From NCBI GenBank assembly GCA_022710715.1, contig JAKLGJ010000003.1, positions 190,527 through 254,526 of the forward strand: a stretch of 64,000 nt of DNA. Direction: 5' to 3'. Shown here piece by piece: positions 2,066 to 58,635 of this stretch. The translations under genes and the position numbers were made by a program. Origin of the DNA: Candidatus Omnitrophota bacterium. Lineage in GTDB: Bacteria; Omnitrophota; Gorgyraeia; Gygaellales; Profunditerraquicolaceae. Below the pieces are notes generated by a model that was not told the DNA's origin, did no database searches, and worked only from the letters and a program-made list of their open reading frames with translations. Positions within the stretch are counted from its first letter, which is position 1, and each line of letters opens with the position of its first letter.

Positions 2066-2146
2066 AAAAAAGGGGACAGGTCCACCCAAAACCCTCCGTC
2101 GAGAAATTTAGACAGATGTGTCCCCTTCTAAATTTGCTGTGTCCCC
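2066..2146 (+). repeat. REP-like element copy A: GGGGACAGGTCCACCC-N30-GACAGATGTGTCCCC-N14-GCTGTGTCCCC.
   Basis: Near-identical to copies at 2838, 3493 and 5320. Lies 5 nt after the RAYT stop. Confidence 0.85.
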
Positions 2147-2155
2147 TTTTTAGTT

Positions 2156-2821
2156 CTAGGGAACCCCACACACCATCTGATCCAGAGGAAGCTGTTTAAT
2201 CTTTTCTTTCATCCGTTCCACGAAATCCTCACTCCCTAATATCGTCCGGCGCGAGAAAGATTTCTGATTCATCACCCTGGAATCAAGCACAAAATCGCTG
2301 TAAGTCCTTTGCCGAGCCGCCGGATCGCTGCCAAGCCGCTCATACAACGGATCCATGCTCACCAAAGGATCCTTCTTCCCGGCAGCGTACACATTATAAC
2401 TGCTGAATCCGTATTCCTCGGGATAGGAAACCAACTCTCCGCGCACAGGGTTCAATTCCACATACTTGCCGCACTGCACCAGATAATTCTCCGAATCGAC
2501 AATGATACTCTTATACCGCCCCTGCCACAAATGCCCGATTAAACCGTAGCGCTTGCGAAAATACTGCATATAGGACAGGTTCACCTTCTGCATAAAAAGC
2601 GCGACATTCGACTCCATCTGCGGCCAAAGCAGCAAATGCACATGATTATTCATCAGGCAATAGTGCAGGATCTTGATAAAATTATTCGCCCTATGCTCCA
2701 GCAGCAATTTGTAATAATGCCGCTTATCCTCCCAGCAATGAAAAACGAACTGCTTGCCATTGCCCCGGCACATCACATGCAACCCCGCTCCAACCACGAT
2801 GATCCTGCGAATCCTCGGCAT
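2156..2821 (-). CDS. REP-associated tyrosine transposase (RAYT; IS200-like Y1 HUH transposase).
   Basis: HUH motif NHVHLLLW; catalytic Tyr region GHLWQGRYKS...ELNPVRGELV like E. coli RayT/YafM. Start moved to the internal ATG (MPRIRR) preceded by GAGGAGGAGG, because the ORF-track N-terminus is read through REP copy B. Confidence 0.8.
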   Translation of the reverse strand: MPRIRRIIVVGAGLHVMCRGNGKQFVFHCWEDKRHYYKLLLEHRANNFIKILHYCLMNNHVHLLLWPQMESNVALFMQKVNLSYMQYFRKRYGLIGHLWQGRYKSIIVDSENYLVQCGKYVELNPVRGELVSYPEEYGFSSYNVYAAGKKDPLVSMDPLYERLGSDPAARQRTYSDFVLDSRVMNQKSFSRRTILGSEDFVERMKEKIKQLPLDQMVCGVP

Positions 2822-2837
2822 CTGCTCCTCCTCCTCA

Positions 2838-2916
2838 CATAAGGGGACAGGTCCACCCAAAACGGCTCGTCGAGAATTTTGGACAGATGTGTCCCCTTCT
2901 AAATTTGCTGTGTCCC
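2838..2916 (+). repeat. REP-like element copy B, same orientation as copy A, between the RAYT start and the ORF6N-1 stop.
   Basis: Direct sequence identity to copy A over about 80 bp. Confidence 0.85.
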
Positions 2917-2932
2917 CTTTTCGAGGACGAGA

Positions 2933-3475
2933 TTAATCAGTCTTGAATCCAATCTGCGGCTTCGAAACCGGTGCCGACGATTTGGTGACAGGCTGCGCCG
3001 GCGCAAGCAATAATTGCTTGATAGCTTCGAAAATCGCATTGATCCGCTCATCGTGCTTATCCACTCGCCGCCCCAACGCTTCAAGCTTTTCCGCCAATTC
3101 CCGGTGAGTCAACAAGAGCTCGCGCAACTTCACAAACGCCCTCATAATAGCAATATTTACCTGAACAGCCCGCTCTGACCTCAAAACGCTTGAAAGCATC
3201 GCCACACCCTGTTCGGTAAAAACATACGGCAAGTGTCGCCTGCCGCCCCAACTTGACATCGCAAATTGCGATTTCAAATTTATTGCTTCTTCCTGGGTCA
3301 TCTGAAACATAAAATCATCCGGGAATCTATTACGATTCCTTTTAACCTGCTCATTCAACCGCATCGTTGCAACACCATACAACTGCGCCAGGTCCCGATC
3401 GATCAAAACCCGCTTACCCCGTACCACTAAAATTCTTGCTGCCACGGCTTCCACAGAAAATTTCCCTTCGTTCAT
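2933..3475 (-). CDS. ORF6N-domain (KilA-N-like, phage antirepressor-type DNA-binding) protein, paralog 1.
   Basis: MNEGKFSVEAVAARILVVRGKRVLIDRDLAQLYGV...RFPDDFMFQ...[46 protein letters not shown] plus a C-terminal coiled coil. Start trimmed to ATG 3475 because the first 27 aa of the track ORF translate REP copy C. Confidence 0.7.
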   Translation of the reverse strand: MNEGKFSVEAVAARILVVRGKRVLIDRDLAQLYGVATMRLNEQVKRNRNRFPDDFMFQMTQEEAINLKSQFAMSSWGGRRHLPYVFTEQGVAMLSSVLRSERAVQVNIAIMRAFVKLRELLLTHRELAEKLEALGRRVDKHDERINAIFEAIKQLLLAPAQPVTKSSAPVSKPQIGFKTD

Positions 3476-3492
3476 AGGCACACCTCCCTGGG

Positions 3493-3570
3493 CAAGGGGA
3501 CAGGTCCACCCTTTTGCGCTCGTCGATATTTTCGGACAGATGTGTCCCCTTTTCAATTTACTGTGTCCCC
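3493..3570 (+). repeat. REP-like element copy C.
   Basis: GGGGACAGGTCCACCC...GACAGATGTGTCCCC...CTGTGTCCCC. Confidence 0.85.
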
Positions 3571-3663
3571 TTTTACCCTAATAGACGCCATCGCCGCTCA
3601 AATCTAACAAAAATATTTTTAACCCAACACACTTTCAATAACCGCACACAACCACTCCCCCCT

Positions 3664-3744
3664 AAAAAAGGGGACACAGCATTTTCGAAAGGGGACACAT
3701 CTCCCCCTTTTTCTCGACGAGGGCTAAGGGGTGGACCTGTCCCC
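3664..3744 (-). repeat. REP-like element copy D, inverted relative to copy C with about 93 bp between them (REPIN-like inverted pair).
   Basis: GGGGACACAGC...GGGGACACATCT...GGGTGGACCTGTCCCC. Confidence 0.8.
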
Positions 3745-3751
3745 TTTTCCG

Positions 3752-3760
3752 TGGTATAAT
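3752..3760 (+). promoter_or_regulatory. Extended -10 promoter TGgTATAAT located 6 nt upstream of the xrtA ATG; predicts a leaderless transcript.
   Basis: TGGTATAAT at 3752-3760, ATG at 3767, no Shine-Dalgarno. Confidence 0.45.
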
Positions 3761-3766
3761 TACTGC

Positions 3767-4639
3767 ATGTTCAATTATCTGATCTGGGGATTAGTCGCCG
3801 CGCTTTATTCGCCGATCATCTACCAGCTTTACCGCAACCGCTGGGAAATGATCGACTACACCCACGCCTACTTCATCCTGCCGGTCTCTCTGTGGCTGAT
3901 CTGGCGCAAGCGCAAAGAACTGCGCCAAGCCGCCCGCGCAACCGCCGCAAGCCGCGCCGCCGCCCACGCCCGCACCCCCAAAAAGGCCGCGCGCTCCGCA
4001 TCCTGGGGTCTGGCAGCCCTCATCCTGGGCGTCCTGTTCTTCATCTTCGGCTGGCGCTGGGATTATCTGTTCATCTCCACCTTCTCGCTCATCCTCACCG
4101 GCTCCGGCCTGGTGCTTTATCTCTACGGCTCCAAAACCGCCAAACTGCTCAAGTTCCCCATTCTCTATCTTTTGCTCATGGTTCCGCCGCCTCTGGGCAT
4201 CCTGGACTCCATCACCCTGCCCATGCGTTACGGCATCTCCGCGGTCGCCGAATTCATCCTGCGCTCATTCCACGTGCCGGTAGTCCGCGACGGCCTGCTG
4301 CTCAACGTCGGCGGACAGGAAATATTCATGGGCCAGCCCTGCTCGGGATTCCGCTCCCTGATCACCCTGATCTCCCTGGGCCTGGCGTACGTGTACATCT
4401 GCAAATCCACGCGACGCACCAAAGCCATACTCCTGGCCTCGATCGTACCCCTGGCTTTAACCGGCAACCTTATCCGCGTGCTTTCGCTGTGCCTGGTCAC
4501 CTACCACTTCGGCCCGGAGATCGGCCAGGGCTTCTTCCACGATTTCAGCGGCATCCTCATGTTCATCGTGACCATTTCCGGCCTCATCGGTCTGGAAGCC
4601 TATTTAAACCGCCCGCGGGTCACGGAGGAGGAACGCTAG
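3767..4639 (+). CDS. xrtA: Exosortase (EpsH/XrtA family), polytopic membrane transpeptidase.
   Basis: WEMIDYTHAYFILPVSLWLIWRKR N-terminal motif; CSG active-site region PCSGFRSLITLISLGLAYVY; 8 predicted TM helices; followed directly by EpsI. Start set to ATG 3767 rather than GTG 3731, which lies in REP copy D. Confidence 0.75.
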   Translation: MFNYLIWGLVAALYSPIIYQLYRNRWEMIDYTHAYFILPVSLWLIWRKRKELRQAARATAASRAAAHARTPKKAARSASWGLAALILGVLFFIFGWRWDYLFISTFSLILTGSGLVLYLYGSKTAKLLKFPILYLLLMVPPPLGILDSITLPMRYGISAVAEFILRSFHVPVVRDGLLLNVGGQEIFMGQPCSGFRSLITLISLGLAYVYICKSTRRTKAILLASIVPLALTGNLIRVLSLCLVTYHFGPEIGQGFFHDFSGILMFIVTISGLIGLEAYLNRPRVTEEER

Positions 4640-5320
4640 ATGAAAAAAGCCGCCCCTGCCCGCGCCGCCGCCCCCGCCGCGCCCTTCAACCCCAGATACC
4701 TTATCGCCGCCATCCTCATCTGCGCGGCTATCGCAATCAGCTTCGCCATACCTAAACCCAAATACCAAAGCCTCAACGTCCTTAAACAGATCTCCATCCC
4801 GGTAAACTTCGGAGACTGGAAGGGCAACGACATCGGTCAGCAGCTCGACCTCAACGACGACCGCTACCGCTTCATCTCGGACATCTTCGCGCGCACCTAC
4901 ACCCGCGCAGACGGCGCGCAGCTCATGTTGCTGATCCTCGACGCAGGCAACTTCCACAATCCCAAAGTCTGCTTCGGCTCTTCCGGCTACAAAATCCGCG
5001 AGCTTCCCGACACCCGGATCAACGCCGGCAAACGCTCTTTTGAAACCACCACCCTGCTGATGACCAAAGATCCGGAATCCACCATGCTCATCTACTGGCT
5101 GTGCATCGATAAGAAAATAACTTCCTGGGCCGGCCAAAAAACCAAAGAACTCTGGTTCTCGCTCTTCAACAAAAAGAAAGCCGGACTCATGGTCCGGCTC
5201 GACGTTCCTGCTCATCCTCAAGCGCCCGAAGCCTCCGCGGCTTTAGCGCAGCAATTCGTTACTGAACTATCAACTCACCTTTCTGAAAAGGACCTGACTC
5301 TCATATTCGGCGCCCAGTAA
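4640..5320 (+). CDS. epsI: EpsI-family exosortase-associated protein.
   Basis: Unfused partner directly after the exosortase (stop/start overlap TAGATG); single N-terminal TM helix then a soluble domain, the EpsI architecture. Confidence 0.6.
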   Translation: MKKAAPARAAAPAAPFNPRYLIAAILICAAIAISFAIPKPKYQSLNVLKQISIPVNFGDWKGNDIGQQLDLNDDRYRFISDIFARTYTRADGAQLMLLILDAGNFHNPKVCFGSSGYKIRELPDTRINAGKRSFETTTLLMTKDPESTMLIYWLCIDKKITSWAGQKTKELWFSLFNKKKAGLMVRLDVPAHPQAPEASAALAQQFVTELSTHLSEKDLTLIFGAQ

Positions 5321-5396
5321 AGGGGACAGGTCCACCCAAAACCCTCCGTCGACAAAAACAGCCAGATGTGTCCCCTTTCAAATTTGCTATGTCCCC
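5320..5396 (+). repeat. REP-like element copy E, abutting the epsI stop codon.
   Basis: Identity to copies A-C. Confidence 0.85.
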
Positions 5397-5425
5397 TTTT
5401 CCTTTTCCAACTCACTCAACTCAAC

Positions 5426-5941
5426 TCAATTCACATCAAACCTCGGTTTGGGCGGCTCATCCGGAGGCGGCTCAATGAGTTTTTTGATCGTTGTGAAGAT
5501 CACCTGAATATCAGTTTCATGCATTTGATACTTCCGCTCTAATTCTTCAATTTTCTCCGATAACTCTTTGTGCGTTAACAACAGTTCTCGCAGCTTCACA
5601 AATGCCCGCATAATTGCTATATTTACCTGGACTGCACGTTCTGAACGCAGCACACTCGATAACATCGCCACACCTTCTTGAGTAAACACATACGGCAGGT
5701 ATCTGTGCCCACCCCAACTTGAGGTCACAAATTGTGACCTCAAGTCTACAACCTCTTCTCGGCTAAGTTGAAACATAAAATCTTCAGGAAACCTCTTAAG
5801 ATTCCTTCTAACGCCTTGAAGCAAAGCTTTCGTCTTCACACCATACAGCTCCGCCAAATCCCTATCCAGCATCACCTTCTTCCCTCGAATCAACAGAATC
5901 TTTGCAGCCACAACCTCCACCGAAATTTTCTCTTTTTTCAT
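5426..5941 (-). CDS. ORF6N-domain protein, paralog 2.
   Basis: [35 protein letters not shown]...[58 protein letters not shown] before ATG 5941. Confidence 0.7.
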
Positions 5942-6132
5942 CGCTCTCCCTCCCTTCATCACTAATAGACGCAGAGAGAAGCGAAATCTAACACAAATCT
6001 CCAGCAACTTATCTCCACCCACCTATAAAAACAAGTAGGACATGGGGACACGAACGAAAAGGAACCAGGTGCCGCGAGGTAACCCCAACAAGAAAAGCGC
6101 ATATTTCTATGCGCTTCCTTCGCCTCCTGATT

Positions 6133-6148
6133 CAAAAGGGGACACAGC
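6133..6148 (-). repeat. Truncated REP-like remnant (a single GGGGACACAGC arm) just 3' of the lipoprotein gene. A second GGGGACAC lies at 6044-6051.
   Basis: Matches the first arm of copies D, G and H only. Confidence 0.4.
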
Positions 6149-6158
6149 TTTTTTCCGC

Positions 6159-6350: not shown

Positions 6351-7855
6351 TTGAGCACCCCCTTTCGCATTTTATACCGCAACACCATCCCAAACAACTT
6401 CGCCCCATCAATGAAATACCGTTTAAACATCCTGCGCGGCTCCATGAACACGCGCCATAACCACTCCAGATGAATAGCAATCATTATTTTAGGCGCCCGC
6501 CGCACATATCCGGACAGAAAATCAAGATACGCTCCCACGCCCATGCATAACCTCGGCTTTAATGCCGCTCGATGCTTATGAATCCACTTCTCCTGTAAAG
6601 GAGCACCCATGCCTACCAGCAGAATATCCGCCCCGGAATTATTGACCTGTTCCACCACATCGTCATCATTCGCAAAAAATCCGTTGCACACTCCCGCAAC
6701 CTTTAATCCCGGGAACCGATTAGTTGCCATTTCAGCGGCCTTCCGAGCAACCCCCTCCTTGCCCCCCAATAAAAACACCGCCAATCCCCTGTTTGCGGCA
6801 ACACGCAAAACAGCAGGAGAAAACTCCGTCCCGTTGCAATTATCCAGCATCCTGATCCCCAGTAAAGAAGAAACCACCCCCAATCCGATCCCATCGGGCA
6901 ACACCAAATCTTTCCCGTTCAGAATGCCCCGATATGCTTCATCTTTCTGCGCTTTATATAAACAATCCGCATTGAGGAAGAAAATCGTTCTTTTGGCAGA
7001 CGACTTGTTCTCGCCATTCCCAAGTATATCTTCAGCAATGTTTACGGCTTCTTTAAAATAAAGGTTATCGTAAGACACATTAAGCACTAAAGCTCGATCT
7101 CGCTGTTGCACTCCCACAGAGTGCCTTTTCCCCATAAAGTAACTCTTGATCAACAATCCCAACAAAAACAGGCCGCTTTTCGCATATCTTCCCAGCATCA
7201 GTTGAGGATCCTGTGCAATCCTCCAGGTCCATTCCAGATTCAATTTCCGCAGCAACACCGGCGCCCGCTTCAGCCTACCGCCGGGATAATCCATCCATCC
7301 CCCGACGCCCAAACAAAGCCGGGGATTCAACTGATCTCGATGCTTATTGATCCACTTCTCCTGTAAAGGCGCGCCCATGCCCACAATCAGGATATCCGCA
7401 CCCGACCGATTAATCTCTTCGATAACAGCCGCATCATCGCTAAAATATCCGGGATGCGCACCAACGATCTTTAATCCGGGATAAGCCTTAACCAGATTGT
7501 CGCCGGCTTTCTTCACTATTTCTTCCTTGCTCCCCAATAAAAACACCTTATTTCCGCCGAAAGCCGCAGTGACTAAAACCACCGGCGTCAAATCAGACCC
7601 ATTGCAATTTCCACGCGATTCAGTTCCCAACGACGCGCTCAAAAGCCGCAGATAAACACCATCCGGCAAAACCAGTTCAGCCGAATTCAGGATCTTAGCA
7701 TATTCCTCATCGTGCAACGCTTTGTACAGATAATCCGCATTGAGAAAAAACACCGACTTCTTGCTTTTTCCCTGCAAATAATCCTTAACCGTATTCACGG
7801 CTTCCTGGAAAGTCAGATTATTGTAGTTGATCCCAAAAACGTCGGTTTTGTGCAT
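6344..7855 (-). CDS. Tandem-duplicated WecB/TagA/CpsF-family (GT26) glycosyltransferase, two complete domains in one polypeptide.
   Basis: Two about 245-aa halves that each carry FFLNAD..LY, VLPDG, LLG.KEE, GADIL.VGMGAPLQEKWI.KHR..L.PRLC.GVG and LEW.WR motifs. Confidence 0.75.
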   Translation of the reverse strand: MHKTDVFGINYNNLTFQEAVNTVKDYLQGKSKKSVFFLNADYLYKALHDEEYAKILNSAELVLPDGVYLRLLSASLGTESRGNCNGSDLTPVVLVTAAFGGNKVFLLGSKEEIVKKAGDNLVKAYPGLKIVGAHPGYFSDDAAVIEEINRSGADILIVGMGAPLQEKWINKHRDQLNPRLCLGVGGWMDYPGGRLKRAPVLLRKLNLEWTWRIAQDPQLMLGRYAKSGLFLLGLLIKSYFMGKRHSVGVQQRDRALVLNVSYDNLYFKEAVNIAEDILGNGENKSSAKRTIFFLNADCLYKAQKDEAYRGILNGKDLVLPDGIGLGVVSSLLGIRMLDNCNGTEFSPAVLRVAANRGLAVFLLGGKEGVARKAAEMATNRFPGLKVAGVCNGFFANDDDVVEQVNNSGADILLVGMGAPLQEKWIHKHRAALKPRLCMGVGAYLDFLSGYVRRAPKIMIAIHLEWLWRVFMEPRRMFKRYFIDGAKLFGMVLRYKMRKGVLKC

Positions 7856-8646: not shown

Positions 8647-10933
8647 GATTCCCATGAAGAAATTCATCTTCCTATTATTAATCATTATACCCCTATTCTG
8701 CCCCTCCATACAAGCCCAAACCCAAGAAAATGAAGATGGTGAGTGGTATCCCTTCTATTTTCCGGAGAAACTCGATCCCGACTCTCCCATGAACATCGGT
8801 AAGCTGGTTTTAGACGCCCCTGCCGGAAAACACGGTTTCTGCAAAGTCAAAGACGGCCATTTCTATTTTGAGGACGGAACAAGAGCGAAATTCTGGGGCA
8901 CTAATCTTTGTTTCAACGCCTGTTTTCCCACCAAGGAACAAGCAGAAATGTTGGCCACCCGCATTGCCTACTTCGGCTTTAATGCTGTCCGTCTGCATCA
9001 TATGGATTTCTATTTCGAGCCCAAAGGAATCTTTGAAGACGTTTGCCCGGCCTACAAAGACCCGCAGATGAAAAGAACTGGAGTTTTGAGCAAAAAACAA
9101 CTCGACAAGCTGGATTACCTGATTTACCAATTAAAAATTAGAGGCATCTACATAGATATGAATTTGCTTGTGGCTCGTCATTTCACGGAAGCGGACGGAG
9201 TCAAATTTGCAAAAGAACTGGGTATGGCGGCAAAACCGGTTTCCATGTTTGATCCCAAACTTATTGAACTGCAGAAACAGTACGCTAAAGACCTACTCAC
9301 GCATTATAACCCTTACACAAAACTACGTTACTGCGACGATCCGGTAATCGCACTTATTGAAATTACCAATGAGAACTCAATTATTGGGTCCTGGCAAGGG
9401 AATAATCTAAACGGAACCCTCTTGGGTCTAAAAACCAAGGGGATTCCCGATTATTACTCCCAGCAGCTTGATATCAGCTGGAACAAATGGTTGGAGAAAA
9501 AATACTTAACAACTGAGCATACTATTGCCGCCTGGGAGGATACGTCCACCCATCCCGCCCAACTACAAATGATTTTTCTGCCTTCACTGGATCAATGGAA
9601 AACGGAACAACACAGTACAGCTAAACTATCTAAATCTGTAACTTCAGAAGGTGTAACAATTAAGGTAAAAACTATCACAAATACCCCTTGGCATCTTCAG
9701 TTTAAATCACACATTGATATTACTAAAGATAAAAACTACATATTAAACTTTACCGGATACAGTTCTAAACCAACAACCGCCGGTTTGATTTGCCAACAAA
9801 CATCTCCGCCATGGGATAATGTAGGATTGGCTGAAAGTATTATTTTCACCACAACCCCACAGGATTTTGCCATACCCTTCACAGCAACTCAGAGCTCAAC
9901 AAAAGCAAAACTGGCTTTTCTCATCGGCTACGACACTTCGACAATCTATTTATCCAATATCACTCTGACAAGTGCAAACAATTTGCCATTGAAATCGGAA
10001 TGCGAACCTACCGATCACTTTAACTTTCCAAGACCTCTCTACAAATTGCGATTTTTTCATAATAAAAAAATCATCAAAGACATTGCTTCTTTCTATGCTG
10101 ATCTAACAAAAGAGTACATCGACCAAATGTTATCCACACTACGGACTGACATAGGTATTAAAGTGCCAATCACAGGCATCGGGGGCAACATTCATGAAGA
10201 AAACATTCCCGCAATGCAAAACTGCGACTTCACTGATCATCACACATATTGGGACCATCCCAAGTTTCCACACAAACCTTGGGACAGGAATGACTTTGTT
10301 ATCGAAAACAAATCAATGCTTCAAAATCCTTCATTGGGCATGATAGGTTCTATAGATAAATACCACTTCGATAAAACTAAACCATATACCATAACTGAGT
10401 GGAACCATTGCTATCCCAACAAATTTGCTTACGAATCCCCTATCCTGATAGCACTCCACGCAAAACAAAAAGAATGCGACGCATTATTTCAATTCGCATT
10501 CAGTCACGGCTGGGAAATAAACTTCAGACTAGATACCATTCAAAGCTATTTCGATATTCTTTCCAATGCGCAACAATTACTACTTTGCGGTATGGGCAGC
10601 TTCATCCACCTATCACAAGATACAGCAGACCACTCACTTAATAATGGCATCTTGCGGTTCAAATCATCCGGCATCGAGGGATACTGCGGGTCTATTGCCA
10701 ACACCCCGCTGTACTTAAATGCCCAACCAATAATTTCACGGGACAACGGCGCGATTATTATTTTAACTAACAGTCAACAGTCAACCGATGCTTTATTCTC
10801 AGTCGGCGAGATTAAAAATTCGAACAGCGGCTGGCGCAATAATAAATTCATCTGGGGGGCAAGACCAACACTAATGAAACGCATCAAAACAAAGCAAACA
10901 GCGGAAAATTCAGCAAAGACACAACTACCTTGA
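8645..10933 (+). CDS. Secreted glycoside hydrolase, GH5-like TIM barrel plus C-terminal beta-rich domains.
   Basis: Signal peptide MKKFIFLLLIIIPLFCPSIQA; RLHHMD and IEITNENS (NE catalytic-acid-type motif). Sole plus-strand gene of the glycan island. Start may be 8654. Confidence 0.5.
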   Translation: MIPMKKFIFLLLIIIPLFCPSIQAQTQENEDGEWYPFYFPEKLDPDSPMNIGKLVLDAPAGKHGFCKVKDGHFYFEDGTRAKFWGTNLCFNACFPTKEQAEMLATRIAYFGFNAVRLHHMDFYFEPKGIFEDVCPAYKDPQMKRTGVLSKKQLDKLDYLIYQLKIRGIYIDMNLLVARHFTEADGVKFAKELGMAAKPVSMFDPKLIELQKQYAKDLLTHYNPYTKLRYCDDPVIALIEITNENSIIGSWQGNNLNGTLLGLKTKGIPDYYSQQLDISWNKWLEKKYLTTEHTIAAWEDTSTHPAQLQMIFLPSLDQWKTEQHSTAKLSKSVTSEGVTIKVKTITNTPWHLQFKSHIDITKDKNYILNFTGYSSKPTTAGLICQQTSPPWDNVGLAESIIFTTTPQDFAIPFTATQSSTKAKLAFLIGYDTSTIYLSNITLTSANNLPLKSECEPTDHFNFPRPLYKLRFFHNKKIIKDIASFYADLTKEYIDQMLSTLRTDIGIKVPITGIGGNIHEENIPAMQNCDFTDHHTYWDHPKFPHKPWDRNDFVIENKSMLQNPSLGMIGSIDKYHFDKTKPYTITEWNHCYPNKFAYESPILIALHAKQKECDALFQFAFSHGWEINFRLDTIQSYFDILSNAQQLLLCGMGSFIHLSQDTADHSLNNGILRFKSSGIEGYCGSIANTPLYLNAQPIISRDNGAIIILTNSQQSTDALFSVGEIKNSNSGWRNNKFIWGARPTLMKRIKTKQTAENSAKTQLP

Positions 10934-10939
10934 TATCAA

Positions 10940-11875
10940 TCAGCCATTTTTTAACAAAAATGCCGTTTGAGTCCACAAATTACCTTTTGCGCTCAATTTT
11001 CGATATCTAGCATACGCATTACCACTAACCCTCGGTTTTTTGTTAAAAATCATTCCAAACCGCCTAAAAGATAGCAAAAGAACAAACACCATCTTCAAGA
11101 AACAACGATGTCGGATCCCCTTCACCAAATAAACAGGCGTTCTAACACAAGTTTCTCTTACCGCTCCCCAGAAAGGGAAATATCTCCAGGCGACCCATAA
11201 GCTATTACGTAACCGTCGACACTCGTGTTCAGAGTTAAAGATTCTTTTTTCAAGTGAAATACGGTGGAAAACTTTAATTTCCGGACAATACAATATTCCA
11301 AATCCGGCGTTTAACGCTTTAAGGCTCAACTCAGATTCCTCCCAACTGAAGAACAGATCATCCCAATAAAATCCAGCCTGTTCAAAAACTTCGCATCTAA
11401 TCGCATGTCCACAACCGCAGAATGTATATGTTGAAAACTCCTCATCCTGCTTTTCCATAAAGCTTTTCTGATATACCCACGAACCCATGTCTAGTTCTTT
11501 AGTATGCGAATTGAGAATCTTAAATCCGATTATCCCAATTTCAGGATTAGCTTTGAATTTACCAACTATTTTGCTCAAAGAACCGTCTTCAAAACTAGCA
11601 TCATTATCCAGGAATACCAAGAACCGCCCCCGAGCATTAGCAACACCGATATTGCGACCTCCCGGAACTCCCATGTTTTTATGCAAACAGATCAACTTGA
11701 CTCCTTGGGGTACAAAATCATGCTCCAACATCTCAATAGTGCCATCAGTAGAACCTTGATCAACAACAATTACTTCATAATCATTAAAATCCTGTTTAAA
11801 GAGGTCATTTAAGGTCAAAGCAATATCATGCTTTCTGTTCCAACTAAGAATAATAACACTAATCAATTTCGACAT
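10940..11875 (-). CDS. Family 2 glycosyltransferase.
   Basis: SVIILSWNR...VVDQGSTDGT...DNDA motifs; start at MSKLIS. Confidence 0.7.
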   Translation of the reverse strand: MSKLISVIILSWNRKHDIALTLNDLFKQDFNDYEVIVVDQGSTDGTIEMLEHDFVPQGVKLICLHKNMGVPGGRNIGVANARGRFLVFLDNDASFEDGSLSKIVGKFKANPEIGIIGFKILNSHTKELDMGSWVYQKSFMEKQDEEFSTYTFCGCGHAIRCEVFEQAGFYWDDLFFSWEESELSLKALNAGFGILYCPEIKVFHRISLEKRIFNSEHECRRLRNSLWVAWRYFPFWGAVRETCVRTPVYLVKGIRHRCFLKMVFVLLLSFRRFGMIFNKKPRVSGNAYARYRKLSAKGNLWTQTAFLLKNG

Positions 11876-22673: not shown

Positions 22674-22754
22674 AAAAAAGGGGACACAGCAATTTGCAAA
22701 GGGGACACATCTGTCCGATTTTCTCGACGAGCCGTTTTGGGTGGACCTGTCCCC
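22674..22754 (-). repeat. REP-like element copy G, immediately 3' of the sugar transferase gene. Followed by a perfect 21-bp tandem duplication (22747-22788) spanning the REP end and the gene's last codons.
   Basis: GGGGACACAGCAATTTGCAAAGGGGACACATCTGTCCG...GGGTGGACCTGTCCCC; CTGTCCCCTATTTCGCGCCGA repeated twice. Confidence 0.8.
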
Positions 22755-22774
22755 TATTTCGCGCCGACTGTCCC

Positions 22775-24193
22775 CTATTTCGCGCCGATGCCGAGGATAA
22801 CCGCAGGCACGGTTTTGGCGATGATCTTGGCGTCGAGCCACAGGGACCAGTTGTCGATGTAATCCAGGTCCAGCTTGACCCATTTGGCGAAATCCACGAT
22901 CTGATTGCGCCCGGAAACCTGCCAGAGGCAGGTGATGCCCGGCCGCATGGAAAGCCTGCGGCGGTGCCAGGCGTCGTATTCCTTGACTTCCAAGGGCAAC
23001 GGCGGACGCGGCCCCACGGTGCTCATATCCCCGCAGAACACGTTCCATAATTGCGGCAGCTCGTCGATGGAAAACTTGCGCAGGATGCGGCCCAGCCAGG
23101 TCACCCTGGGGTCGTTTTTCATCTTGAACACCGGGCCGGTCATCTCGTTATGCACGCGCAATTCGTTCAATTTCATCTCCGCGTCTTTGATCATGGTGCG
23201 GAATTTGTACAGGGTGAAAATGCGGCCGTTAAGCCCCACCCGTTTCTGCCGGAAGAATACCGGCCCCGCGGAAGTCACTTTTATCAAGAGCGCCACGATC
23301 AGGAAAAAAGGCGACAGCGCCACAAGCAGGACGCCGGCAAAAACAAAATCGAAAACGCGCTTGATCAGCAGATGCCAGAGTTTATCCGGCGTGGAATCAA
23401 AGGTCAACAGGGGAAATTTGCCCAGCTCCCCGACTTTAGCCCGGGAGAACTGCATCTCGAAATAATCCACGGCCACGTGTATCTTCAAACCTTCCATTTC
23501 GCACAGATAGAGGATATCCTCGATCTTGTTCAGCCAGGAACGCGGGATCACGAAAACCACCTCATCGATCACCATGCTGCGCAGGATCAGGGGCATGTCC
23601 TTGAAGGTCCCCAGGACTTTCACCCCTTCCACGCTCTCCCCCTTCTTGCCCGGATCGTCGTCGATGATGCCGGCGAGCTTGTACCCCCAGGAAGAATGCT
23701 CCTTGATCAACTGGATGAATTGCTGGGCGCGTTTGTTGGTGCCCACCACCAGGAGATATTTGACGTTGAAGCCGCGGCGGCGGATCAGGCGGAAAAACAG
23801 GATGAGAAATATTTTCGAAGCCAGAGTCAACACCGTGGCGATGCCGAAGACCAGCAGGATGAACGCGCGGCTGATCTCATGCAGCCGGAATAAATAGATC
23901 ACGCTGGAGTAAAATACGAACCCCACGAAAGCGGTGCGCAGCACGATCAGCCAGATATCCCAGAGCGGCTTGGTGCGAAAGGATTCGTACATTTTGAACC
24001 AATAGAGCAATCCGCTCCAGGTGAAAACGAACAGCGGCAGCAGGCCGACGTATTCGTTCAACGGATGGATCATGCCCATGCTATCGCTCAAATAACCGCG
24101 GAATTCGAAGCCGATGAGGAATGACGCGGCGGCAATGAACATATCCACGAAAACCGCTGTTTTTCTAAGCATTGAAATGCGTTCTTTAAGCAT
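22775..24193 (-). CDS. Polyprenyl-phosphate glycosyl-1-phosphate transferase (WbaP/EpsL-type initiating sugar transferase).
   Basis: N-terminal TM bundle plus a C-terminal bacterial sugar transferase domain (KRVFDFVFAGVLLVALSPFFL...FRQKRVGLNGRIFTLYKFRTM). Confidence 0.8.
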   Translation of the reverse strand: MLKERISMLRKTAVFVDMFIAAASFLIGFEFRGYLSDSMGMIHPLNEYVGLLPLFVFTWSGLLYWFKMYESFRTKPLWDIWLIVLRTAFVGFVFYSSVIYLFRLHEISRAFILLVFGIATVLTLASKIFLILFFRLIRRRGFNVKYLLVVGTNKRAQQFIQLIKEHSSWGYKLAGIIDDDPGKKGESVEGVKVLGTFKDMPLILRSMVIDEVVFVIPRSWLNKIEDILYLCEMEGLKIHVAVDYFEMQFSRAKVGELGKFPLLTFDSTPDKLWHLLIKRVFDFVFAGVLLVALSPFFLIVALLIKVTSAGPVFFRQKRVGLNGRIFTLYKFRTMIKDAEMKLNELRVHNEMTGPVFKMKNDPRVTWLGRILRKFSIDELPQLWNVFCGDMSTVGPRPPLPLEVKEYDAWHRRRLSMRPGITCLWQVSGRNQIVDFAKWVKLDLDYIDNWSLWLDAKIIAKTVPAVILGIGAK

Positions 24194-34147: not shown

Positions 34148-34176
34148 ATTATACCTCTGCCGGCTGAAAAAAGCAA
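34148..34176 (-). promoter_or_regulatory. Sigma70-type promoter for the PC4-like gene: -35 TTGCTT, 17 bp spacer, -10 TATAAT, with RBS AGGAGGAG downstream.
   Basis: Read on the minus strand. Confidence 0.45.
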
Positions 34177-34201
34177 GAGGCTGGGCGTTTAACCCAGCCT
34201 C
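34177..34201. terminator. Bidirectional intrinsic terminator. 9-bp stem GAGGCTGGG / CCCAGCCTC, 7-nt loop, T-tracts on both strands (TTGCTTTTTT on minus, TTTTTC on plus).
   Basis: Perfect inverted repeat. Sits after cheW and REP copy H. Confidence 0.6.
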
Positions 34202-34205
34202 TTTT

Positions 34206-34286
34206 TCAAAAGGGGACACAGCAAATTTCAAAGGGGACACATCTGTCCGATTTTCTCGACGAGCCCCAAGGGGTGGACCTGTCCCC
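34206..34286 (-). repeat. REP-like element copy H, overlapping the cheW stop codon.
   Basis: Near-identical to copy G. Confidence 0.8.
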
Positions 34287-34780
34287 TATGCGAGGAGTTC
34301 GGCGGCGAGCGAGACGTCTTCGGTCAGGACTTTGTCGATGTCGAGCAGGATCTTGACCTTGTCGCCGATCTTACCCATGCCGGTGATAAAATCCGTGTGC
34401 ACTTTGTTGCCGAAACTCGGCGCCGGCTCGATATTGTCCTGGGATATATCCAGCACCTCGCACACCCGGTCGACGGCGATGCCCATAAGCGAATTGTTGA
34501 CGTTGAGCACGATGATGCAGGTCTCGTTGGTATAATCGTGCTTAGGCATCCCGAATTTCAAACGCAGGTCGATCACCGGGATCACTTTTCCGCGCAGGTT
34601 GATCACGCCTTTAACGTAATCCGGCACCTGGGGGACCGCAGTGATCTCCATCAGCCCGATGATCTCGCGCACTCCCAGGATCTCCAGGCCGTACTCTTCA
34701 TGTCCCAGGGCGAAGGTGAGGTATTTTCCTTCCTTAGCCAGGGCCTGAACCATAGTATTGGATTTCTCATTGCTTGGCAT
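34286..34780 (-). CDS. cheW: Chemotaxis coupling protein CheW.
   Basis: CheW-like domain LTFALGHEEYGLEILGVREII...VINLRGKVIPVIDLR. Confidence 0.85.
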   Translation of the reverse strand: MPSNEKSNTMVQALAKEGKYLTFALGHEEYGLEILGVREIIGLMEITAVPQVPDYVKGVINLRGKVIPVIDLRLKFGMPKHDYTNETCIIVLNVNNSLMGIAVDRVCEVLDISQDNIEPAPSFGNKVHTDFITGMGKIGDKVKILLDIDKVLTEDVSLAAELLA

Positions 34781-57167: not shown

Positions 57168-57227
57168 GGGGACGTTCCCCAAGGTACCACCCCTGTAACC
57201 AGGGGTGGTACCTTGGGGAACGTCCCC
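57168..57227. repeat. Perfect 28-bp inverted repeat (GGGGACGTTCCCCAAGGTACCACCCCTG, loop TAAC) between the NYN gene stop and the MBL gene start.
   Basis: Both arms are exact reverse complements. Shares GGGGAC and CCACCCC cores with the REP-like family. The T-tract lies only on the plus strand. Confidence 0.8.
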
Positions 57228-57710
57228 TTATTTTAGCCAGAGAGAGCGCAATTCCCTGTTGATCGCCAGCATCGAACTCTGGCTGATCTCCGCTTTACCG
57301 GCATCCTTGCCGGCAGAGCCGGCCGCGCGCTTGTGCGCCACTGCCGCGAATTCCGCAACCTTCAGGACCTGCGTGCCGGCGGACCGGGCAAAAAAACGGA
57401 CTTCATTATCGTCGGAAACGACCAGCACCGTTTTGGGATGAGCCGCCGATTCCACCAGCCGCTTGATCCTCTCGTCCGCGCTCTCTTCGCGCGAGAAGAG
57501 GATCTCCAGAGCCGGATCTTCGATGTGCGCGCTGCCGGCGGCGGGAAACCCGTCGAAAACGATGGTGATTTTGTTCTTCCGGCTGCCGCAGAGATGCCGC
57601 TCCCGGATGCAATGGACCAGCGCCCGGGGTTTATCCGCGCCTTTGAGCACTCCTTCAAACACCCGGTGCCGGACGAGATTGTACCCGTCTATGATGTAAT
57701 GTAAAGACAT
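57228..57710 (-). CDS. NYN-domain (YacP-like) putative RNase.
   Basis: MSLHYIIDGYNLV...TIVFDG...VVSDD motifs. Confidence 0.55.
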   Translation of the reverse strand: MSLHYIIDGYNLVRHRVFEGVLKGADKPRALVHCIRERHLCGSRKNKITIVFDGFPAAGSAHIEDPALEILFSREESADERIKRLVESAAHPKTVLVVSDDNEVRFFARSAGTQVLKVAEFAAVAHKRAAGSAGKDAGKAEISQSSMLAINRELRSLWLK

Positions 57711-58635
57711 ACGTGATGCCCCCGACAGCCGCCAGCACGAGCATAATAAAAAACCCGAGCAGCGACATGGCAAAAGCGGCGTTTCTACCCAGGCCCGCCT
57801 GGGCGAAAAAGTAAACCGTTAACGCGTCCCGCAAACCCAGTCCGCCGATGGAAATGGGCAGCATGGTCACCGCGCCGATGATCGGAACGAATACAAAAAA
57901 ATAGATCAACCCGATATCGAAACCCAGCGATCTGCAGAGCAGGTAACTCGTAAGCGGGGAAAGCAACTGCACGCCCAGAGAGATCAGCAGGCTTAGCCCC
58001 ACCGCTTTCTTCTTGTGGCGGAAAATATGCGTATGGGTATGGATGCTGCCGAGGGTCGCGCGCAGCGAACCGGTGACCGGGGAAGCAAGCATGGCGTTGA
58101 TCTTACGGTAGAAATACGAATTGAACAGCACCAGCAGCAGGCCGGCTAACACCGCGGCGATCACCGCGACGCTGACATACACGCTGCGTTCGGTAATCAT
58201 CGAGGTCCCGGCGATCAGGGAGAGTATCGACACGATAACCAGCCCGCCGTAACCGCTCAATCGATCGACCAGCGCGCTGGCGACCACTTCCGGGGTCCTG
58301 CGGGTGGAAGCGGCCAGGTCAAAACTGCGCACCACATCTCCCCCGATCGACGAAGGCAGGAAGATATTAAAAAAAATACCGCCGGCATACGGCGGTATTA
58401 ATTGCTTGAGCCCCAGATCGATCCCCGCGGCTTTCAACAATGTCTTCCAGCGCAGGAAACAGAGCATATAGACAACGACATACAGGCCGGCTGCTCCGGC
58501 AAAAAGCAGCTTGTCGGCCCTGCGCATCAAGCCCAGGAGACTGCGCAGATCGACCTGCCGCAACAAAAAAATCAGCAACGCGAGGCTGATCACCACCCTC
58601 GTCAGGAGTATCCCTGCTTTCTTGAGGGTTTCCAT
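57655..58635 (-). CDS. Flippase-like / lysylphosphatidylglycerol-synthase-TM-region (UPF0104) membrane protein.
   Basis: 8 TM helices; LSPLTSYLL region typical of the family. Confidence 0.5.
   Translation of the reverse strand: METLKKAGILLTRVVISLALLIFLLRQVDLRSLLGLMRRADKLLFAGAAGLYVVVYMLCFLRWKTLLKAAGIDLGLKQLIPPYAGGIFFNIFLPSSIGGDVVRSFDLAASTRRTPEVVASALVDRLSGYGGLVIVSILSLIAGTSMITERSVYVSVAVIAAVLAGLLLVLFNSYFYRKINAMLASPVTGSLRATLGSIHTHTHIFRHKKKAVGLSLLISLGVQLLSPLTSYLLCRSLGFDIGLIYFFVFVPIIGAVTMLPISIGGLGLRDALTVYFFAQAGLGRNAAFAMSLLGFFIMLVLAAVGGITYVFTLHHRRVQSRPAPGV

Follow-up and report, generated by a model that had tools for sequence, protein, structure and literature searches.

REP (repetitive extragenic palindromic) sequences and their REP-associated tyrosine transposases (RAYTs) have been described mainly in Proteobacteria and in a few other phyla. 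The closest described systems are the inverted repeats around TIRYT RAYT-like genes, for which the motif GGGG[AT][CG]A[CG] (GGGGWSAS) was reported (Di Nocera 2013, PMC3733652), a motif also discussed for TnpA_REP subclass 2.1 (Quentin 2018, PMC6006769), the REPs and bacterial interspersed mosaic elements (BIMEs) of E. coli with their transposase TnpA_REP (PMC3479197), the REPINs (REP doublets forming hairpins) of Pseudomonas (Bertels & Rainey 2011, PMC3116915) and the insertion sequences of the IS200/IS605 group. Here, a stretch of 64,000 nucleotides (nt) from a Candidatus Omnitrophota bacterium (contig JAKLGJ010000003.1, positions 190,527 to 254,526; hereafter the window) was found to harbor an 81-nt repeat with three GGGGACA-type cores, clustered around a RAYT-like gene. 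This repeat is a new sequence family of a known repeat type, not a new class. It is probably a lineage-specific, non-autonomous repeat of the REP/BIME type, most likely dependent on the adjacent RAYT; the repeat would be mobilised in trans on single-stranded DNA through its GGGGACA arms and kept beside stop codons.

The pattern GGGGACA-N20-50-TGTCCCC-N5-25-TGTCCCC gave 8 matches in the window, corresponding to 7 distinct elements (copy G matched in 2 registers), and 0 matches in 100 dinucleotide-preserving shuffles of it; the GGGGACA heptamer occurred 28 times, against 6.5 +/- 2.5 expected. Copy boundaries were taken from a hidden Markov model built on the 7 window copies, with the flanking conserved A and TTTT included. 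Pattern and model together bore out the count of seven full copies and one remnant given in the initial annotation of this DNA, as well as the grouping of five copies within 4 kb: these lay within 3.3 kb around the RAYT gene, and six lay within ~6.2 kb when the eighth copy, Z, was included. The copies and the transposase gene were distributed as follows, position numbers being those of the window unless a locus label (L118, L119, L122, L126 and so on) is given.

2070-2150, plus strand: copy A; 3' end 5 nt from the RAYT stop codon, the last C of the right-hand core 9 nt away
2156-2821, minus strand: RAYT-like Y1 HUH transposase gene, 221 amino acids (aa); Pfam Y1_Tnp, 48 bits
2841-2921, plus strand: copy B; RAYT ribosome-binding site on one side and ORF6N-1 stop codon on the other, with 21 nt from its GGGGACAGG end to the start codon of the RAYT
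3494-3574, plus strand: copy C; in the leader of ORF6N-1, after a conserved upstream motif and before the ribosome-binding site
3666-3746, minus strand: copy D; inverted partner of C, with a 91-nt spacer
5320-5400, plus strand: copy E; the TAA stop of EpsI ends 1 nt ahead of the element's GGGG
6134-6148, plus strand: remnant AAAAGGGGACACAGC (15 nt, right arm only); upstream of ORF6N-2, 8 nt past the stop of a 63-aa open reading frame (ORF)
22676-22755, minus strand: copy G; directly after the native stop codon of a sugar-transferase gene
34208-34287, minus strand: copy H; the TAG stop of CheW overlaps the element's first G, and a canonical terminator hairpin lies beyond (~34168-34207)
L122 13557-13636: copy Z; ~1.4 kb outside the left window edge, on contigs extending the window

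The unit was uniform in length, with 81 nt in all copies when the conserved 5' A and 3' TTTT were counted. It comprised a left arm (A)GGGGACAGGTCCACCC, a central CGTCGA box, an inverted middle arm GATGTGTCCCC and a third arm GCTGTGTCCCCTTTT, the latter being a repeat of the end of the middle arm. Every copy carried the core GGGGACAG in the left arm and GGGGACAC in the middle and right arms, separated by spacers of 23 and 10 nt, which replace the N30 and N14 first proposed. Four blocks showed no or almost no variation (AGGGGACAGGTCCACCC, C(C)GTCGA, AGATGTGTCCCCTT and TGTCCCCTT(TT)), the segments between them being variable; GACAG ahead of ATGTG was not kept in copies D and E. The GTAG-type 5' tag of REPs was absent, and the 5' junction was A/GGGGACAGG, preceded by NAA or ATA. 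The length of the element had been presented as exceptional for REPs, which was overstated, since units of 60-150 nt are normal for REPINs and BIMEs. Removal of the exact 81 nt of copy C rendered the leader of ORF6N-1 collinear with that of its paralogue ORF6N-2, which has no element at this position, through GCGTCTATTAG, the ribosome-binding site and the ATG. By this comparison, copy C is a clean 81-nt insertion relative to the paralogous site.

A strict pattern scan of Joint Genome Institute (JGI) metagenome contigs revealed 4 further copies (M1-M4) on one 805-kb contig with a GC content similar to that of the window, along with one short contig merely duplicating copy D. The distinct copies known were thus 12 (7 in the window, Z, and 4 on the 805-kb contig). 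Their density was about 1 copy per 9 kb near the RAYT (8 in ~72 kb) versus about 1 per 200 kb on the 805-kb contig under the strict pattern, so the element was present elsewhere and clustered at the RAYT gene. A scan of genome contigs with the 16-mer GGGGACAGGTCCACCC returned 117 loci, all of them chance matches without the full element. One Logan contig terminated inside copy H, as assemblies do at repeats. For annotation, the repeat accounts for assembly breaks and for several apparent terminator and promoter signals in the polysaccharide/exosortase locus.

Seven loci with transposase homologues (40-62% identity; L126, L127, L130, L132, L140, L141 and L142) were examined, and GGGGAC-core repeats flanked the transposase in six of them. 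The closest relative (L126, 62%) harbored a 60-nt element, GGGTCCAGGTCCACCG-N-CTCGTCGAC-N-CGGCCGGACCTGTCCCC, on both sides of its RAYT. Over the initial 60 nt of the window unit, this element aligned in the same register with 75-80% identity; it was oriented to the RAYT as in the window (direct flanks) and also formed two inverted doublets. As it lacked the third arm, the triple architecture of the window unit represents a lineage-specific extension. The RAYT was flanked by inverted AAAGGGGACG[G/T/C]TTCTATTT in L127, L132, L140 (an Aminicenantes genome) and L142, while an inverted AAAGGGGACG/TTCTATTT pair enclosed the RAYT plus the next gene in L130; these relatives showed more copies nearby, and the downstream copy often overlapped the RAYT stop codon. 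L141 displayed a diverged downstream copy only. Because repeat and enzyme co-occur across related lineages, they appear to have diverged together, as in REP/RAYT systems. The known range of REP/RAYT systems thereby grows to take in Candidatus Omnitrophota and relatives, among them an Aminicenantes genome, and these loci offer a natural series for the joint change of RAYT and substrate (22-nt GGGGACG hairpin, 60-nt palindrome, 81-nt triple-core unit). Class-level knowledge of REP/RAYT systems is left unchanged.

The initial annotation had placed the RAYT between two direct copies, A and B, rather than an inverted pair. The direct orientation of these units is real and recurs in L126, but since both core orientations occur within each unit, the two cores closest to the gene remain inverted to each other. 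Other traits are shared with TIRYT/TIRtron systems: the window cores GGGGACAG and GGGGACAC match GGGG[AT][CG]A[CG] exactly, the Y1 transposase is longer than the E. coli RAYT, and the repeats are moderately abundant, as singles, dimers and clusters (PMC3733652; PMC6006769). The window differs from these systems in that its full units flank the gene directly and not in inverted orientation (more distant relatives do have inverted flanks), in its unit being a fixed 81-nt composite of three cores and a central CGTCGA box, and in its host, Omnitrophota not being among the host phyla described. The proposal of a new REP/REPIN family accordingly held for a new, lineage-specific sequence family, whereas its core motif was already published for TIRYT repeats (PMC3733652; PMC6006769).

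The sole NCBIfam match of the transposase was the REP-associated tyrosine transposase (REP_Tyr_transpos, 48.6 bits), and none of the NCBIfam IS200/IS605 models matched it at E <= 0.01. Its HUH motif was H60-V-H62 and its catalytic tyrosine Y120, within CGKYVELNP; H60, H62 and Y120 (CGKYxELNP) were invariant in an alignment of 33 homologues. On the strength of this alignment the catalytic residues of the RAYT are intact, and its identification as a RAYT-like Y1 HUH transposase was sustained. Y120 aligned with the catalytic Y132 of ISDra2 TnpA and, in the alignment with structure 4ER8, stood opposite Tyr115 of that chain, the tyrosine used for catalysis by E. coli TnpA_REP. The tyrosine in GRYKS was rejected as catalytic residue, being Phe in most homologues. 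Among solved structures, the family profile matched 4ER8 (TnpA_REP) best (E 1.5e-5, 28.1 bits), the IS200-family structure 2XM3 reaching 21.5 bits; the single sequence gave marginal ISDra2 matches only, and 4ER8 was reached via the family profile. Neither the C-terminal 94 aa nor two homologues had a Pfam match there at E up to 5 (Bac_DnaA_C, HTH_23, HTH_28).

The window system shares with E. coli REP/BIME and TnpA_REP the HUH and Tyr residues, NPV(R/K)xG after the Tyr, and 4ER8 as best structure match (PMC3479197), together with a single gene locus with flanking repeats, arms that alternate in orientation and copies near ORF 3' ends. It differs from them in units without GTAG tag, in arms that are poor palindromes, and in a protein of 221 aa versus 165 aa whose similarity is weak (28 bits for the profile) and whose NCBIfam RAYT score stays under the cut-off.

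In most RAYT homologues of the alignment, the C-terminus is an AT-hook-like K/R-RGRP-KK tail, and the stems of their REPs are A/T-rich (AAATAG...CTATTT). The window RAYT and its 62% relative (P0002) are devoid of this tail, and the same two have long, GC-rich elements. A tie between tail loss and element type is no more than suggestive, because it amounts to a single evolutionary event.

Single-strand Y1 transposons such as IS608 and ISDra2 use same-strand ends in direct orientation. Copies B and A also lie in direct orientation on one strand, a layout kept in L126, and B-RAYT-A might be read as an autonomous IS200/IS605-like insertion sequence, with solo units being deletion derivatives (comparable to palindrome-associated or miniature inverted-repeat transposable elements, PATEs or MITEs) or products of recombination between direct copies. 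The Y1 HUH fold, the alignment of the tyrosine with ISDra2 Y132 and the lack of a flanking target-site duplication are further traits common to both. In L132, three REP copies (6401-6452, 10630-10681 and 11151-11202) included the final ~35 nt of the RAYT reading frame (...KRGRxxKxxK*) and appear to derive from the RAYT's own 3' flank in a MITE-like manner, which also speaks for an insertion sequence. Against this stands the occurrence of the RAYT at a single locus: the exact protein was found on 12 contigs, one of them belonging to the metagenome-assembled genome GCA_035453765.1 (annotated Candidatus Omnitrophota), and the locus was one and the same each time. In addition, the profile was nearer to TnpA_REP than to IS200-family TnpA, the repeats far outnumbered the gene, no tnpB gene was found near the RAYT, and the solo 81-nt units contained no RAYT-flank sequence. 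An insertion-sequence origin is therefore considered unlikely.

Copies C and D, taken by the initial annotation for an inverted REPIN-like doublet, were confirmed as inverted to each other, 91 nt apart, and an inverted doublet was also found in L119. Together with the two in L126, these doublets recall the REPIN-RAYT systems of Pseudomonas, as do the non-autonomous unit of inverted short repeats and the RAYT, apparently single-copy and vertically inherited (Bertels & Rainey 2011, PMC3116915). REPIN hairpins are strong and their copies run to hundreds, whereas here the folds of single units were weak, the doublet spacers measured 91-258 nt and 12 copies are known. With its arms in alternating orientation, the layout was nearer to BIMEs than to classical REPINs.

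When folded as DNA, the C-D stretch with its 91-nt spacer was strongly structured (-64 kcal/mol, z -10), and so was the L132 REP doublet; single copies folded weakly. The consensus stem consisted of the 8-bp GGGGACA/TGTCCCC pairing plus 3 more pairs, and within one unit only the 7-8-nt cores and a few further positions were complementary. The 60-nt units of L126 formed a more regular though imperfect palindrome, yet their folding energy (-7 to -11 kcal/mol) was not improved. Copies M2 and M3 form an inverted doublet whose 153-nt spacer (L119 1331-1483) had its own terminal inverted repeats, GCATATGAGCG ... CGCTCATATGC; this spacer may represent a nested element of small size or else a structured RNA.

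As first annotated, the stop codons of EpsI, the sugar transferase and CheW are directly adjoined by copies E, G and H, respectively. The same holds more widely: for 6 of the 12 copies (E, G, H, M1, M2 and M4), the stop of a long ORF in the same direction lay 0-1 nt before the first G of GGGGACAGG or overlapped it by 1 nt, and stop codons were likewise abutted by two L126 and three L130 copies. The C-terminus of the sugar transferase ahead of copy G (...GIGAK*) was conserved to the last residue in homologues, and copy H was placed between the cheW stop codon and the separate canonical terminator hairpin of that gene. Both placements, like that of copy C, point to insertion. REPs have been reported less than 20 bp from the 3' ends of ORFs, with TAG stop codons that REP termini are able to provide (PMC3733652). 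Since stop abutment has already been described for REPs, it supports the classification of the element and not its novelty.

This position also suits host cis-acting signals at the RNA or DNA level (terminators or mRNA-end stabilisers when read one way, promoter or 5' untranslated region (5'-UTR) modules when read the other way), which would have been spread by recombination with the RAYT as a mere neighbour. The unit closes with TGTCCCC followed by TTTT (candidate transcript-end sequence TGTCCCCTTTT), terminator-like matches were found inside copies, and copy D places a -35-like hexamer 17 nt ahead of TATAAT. However, a separate canonical terminator comes after copy H, the sites of copies B and C are 5' leader regions, and a stem of 7-8 bp closing a loop of 40-60 nt is poor for termination. 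No match to Rfam 15 at gathering score was obtained anywhere in the window (tRNA and viral-contig searches gave no match either), and the association with a RAYT was repeated in 6 of the 7 related loci. We regard host signals as a quite improbable explanation of the units; as a signal role leaves the origin of the copies unexplained, it would complement transposition rather than replace it.

Two element ends bordered on promoter-like sequences. The D end GGGTGGACCTGTCCCCTT (3732-3760, plus strand) supplied a -35-like TGGACC, with a TG-extended TATAAT 17 nt further on and ahead of the exosortase gene, and the Z end GGGTGGACCTGTCCCCTT (L122 13625-13665) showed CCCC directly joined to TTGACA-N17-TATACT. 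Element ends may create or carry -35 boxes.

Independent tandem micro-duplications were present at three of the six stop-abutting copies, all ending at the GGGGACA(G) of the left arm. Each duplicated unit (13-21 nt) joined the final 6-14 nt of the ORF, stop codon included, to the initial 6-8 nt of the element.

22747-22788, minus strand: duplication at copy G; perfect 21-nt tandem (TCGGCGCGAAATAGGGGACAG twice), made of the gene's last 13-14 nt and the element's first 7-8 nt
L118 4567-4606: duplication; GAGCTGAAATGAGGGGACAG twice
L119 1233-1258: duplication; ACTCTAGGGGACA then ACTTTAGGGGACA

In the duplications of copy G and L119, the final G of the stop codon was also the first G of the core, and a microhomology of 2-3 nt (CA or CAG) was found at each duplication junction. 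The duplications may reflect a recurrent break or stall just 3' of the left core, possibly the nick site of the RAYT. A more specific account, in which RAYT nicking at GGGGACAG and subsequent out-of-register, nick-primed synthesis would have left them as traces, is tentative and rather doubtful. If true, it would expose the cleavage site and the stop-proximal insertion mode of this RAYT clade and give a testable handle on how REP-type repeats get copied.

For the RAYT-dependent repeat that we favour, the following course can be proposed. The RAYT would bind the GGGGACA-containing arms on single-stranded DNA, nick beside a core, and move or copy the unit in trans by IS200/IS605-type chemistry; insertions would survive chiefly right after stop codons. 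The three tandem micro-duplications suggest that a nick, or a replication stall, could occur directly after the left-hand core. Downstream of genes, copies would give a stem followed by a T-run, while copies in the opposite orientation would give -35-like or 5'-UTR sequence to the RAYT, ORF6N-1 and the exosortase gene.

Several observations weigh against this reading. The 12 distinct copies known are a low number for a REP or REPIN family, and the RAYT score of 48.6 bits is below the NCBIfam cut-off of 80. The protein also departs from TIRYT subclass 2.1 by the lack of its C-terminal helix-turn-helix (HTH) domain, Bac_DnaA_C, HTH_23 and HTH_28 all being undetectable. Folding of single units was weak and inconsistent (-8 to -17 kcal/mol, z -0.3 to -4), and since none of the paired positions varies among the 12 copies, covariation is uninformative on any structure. 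The nick position was proposed from only three junction duplications. No empty site or presence-absence polymorphism was found, the sampled populations being all identical: contigs of other samples with the sugar-transferase and cheW genes were identical to the window through copies G and H, duplication included. The nearest other species reached ~63% protein identity (sugar transferase) and is thus too distant for an empty-site comparison at the DNA level.

The patch around the RAYT also harbored an exosortase/EpsI gene pair on the plus strand, with polysaccharide-synthesis genes around it, and two paralogous genes coding for DNA-binding proteins.

2933-3475, minus strand: ORF6N-1, KilA-N-like DNA-binding protein, 180 aa (Pfam ORF6N, 2.7e-34); upstream of the RAYT on the same strand
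3580-3608, minus strand: upstream motif of ORF6N-1, GTTAGATTT-N14-GCGTCTATT
5426-5941, minus strand: ORF6N-2, paralogue of ORF6N-1

Opposite-orientation copies bracket both genes (D and B for ORF6N-1, the remnant at 6134 and E for ORF6N-2), and the units might therefore be boundaries of ORF6N cassettes, serving either in recombination or as the ends of an element that carries ORF6N. Homologues with 72% identity in other Omnitrophota (L138 and L139) had no GGGGAC-type repeats at their flanks, which marks ORF6N as a neighbour and not as a conserved part of the RAYT module or the owner of the repeat. Most copies (A, G, H, Z and M1-M4) were not beside an ORF6N gene, and the relatives of the RAYT have repeats without any such gene. 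The cassette explanation is thus largely refuted and deserves very little credence. Integron attC-like cassettes, suggested by the gene-repeat-gene layout, were rejected as well, with no integrase gene, no GTTRRRY-type core and solo copies that are dispersed.

ORF6N proteins (~170 aa) were abundant in Omnitrophota metagenomes, with at least ~8000 matches at E < 1e-20, mostly on short contigs. They were 65-75% identical and more conserved than the sugar transferase (best match 63%). Elsewhere, ORF6N genes lie in polysaccharide clusters beside Fic, AbiEii and nucleotidyltransferase genes.

The upstream motif, in its general form GTTAGATTT-N14/15-(C)GTCTATT, sat 20-35 nt ahead of the ribosome-binding site at the following places.

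3580-3608, minus strand: window, ORF6N-1 (as listed above)
5964-5992, minus strand: window
L126 3402-3430: motif site
L130 9950-9978: motif site
L132 9938-9966: motif site
L138 ~3490 and ~4955: two motif sites
L139 ~1058: motif site

In the 1.2 Mb searched, the motif lay upstream of ORF6N (5 genes) or RAYT (3 genes), except for one loose match on the minus strand of L138, with a longer spacing and ending in GTCTATA. The window RAYT has no upstream motif of its own; its position downstream of ORF6N-1 and copy B makes co-transcription with ORF6N-1 probable. In its right half, the motif is similar to the REP of the relatives (ACGTTTCTATT). It may act as an operator or promoter common to these genes, and the KilA-N-like ORF6N protein perhaps binds it.

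A further palindrome was found apart from the patch, at 57168-57227 (minus strand), directly after the TAA stop of an ORF at 57228-57773. It was a perfect 28+4+28 palindrome, GGGGACGTTCCCCAAGGTACCACCCCTG-TAAC-CAGGGGTGGTACCTTGGGGAACGTCCCC, present in one copy in the window (-39.9 kcal/mol as DNA, z -11.8). Its termini carried a GGGGACG core, as in the REPs of the related RAYT loci, and the palindrome may represent either a second type of REP or a terminator.

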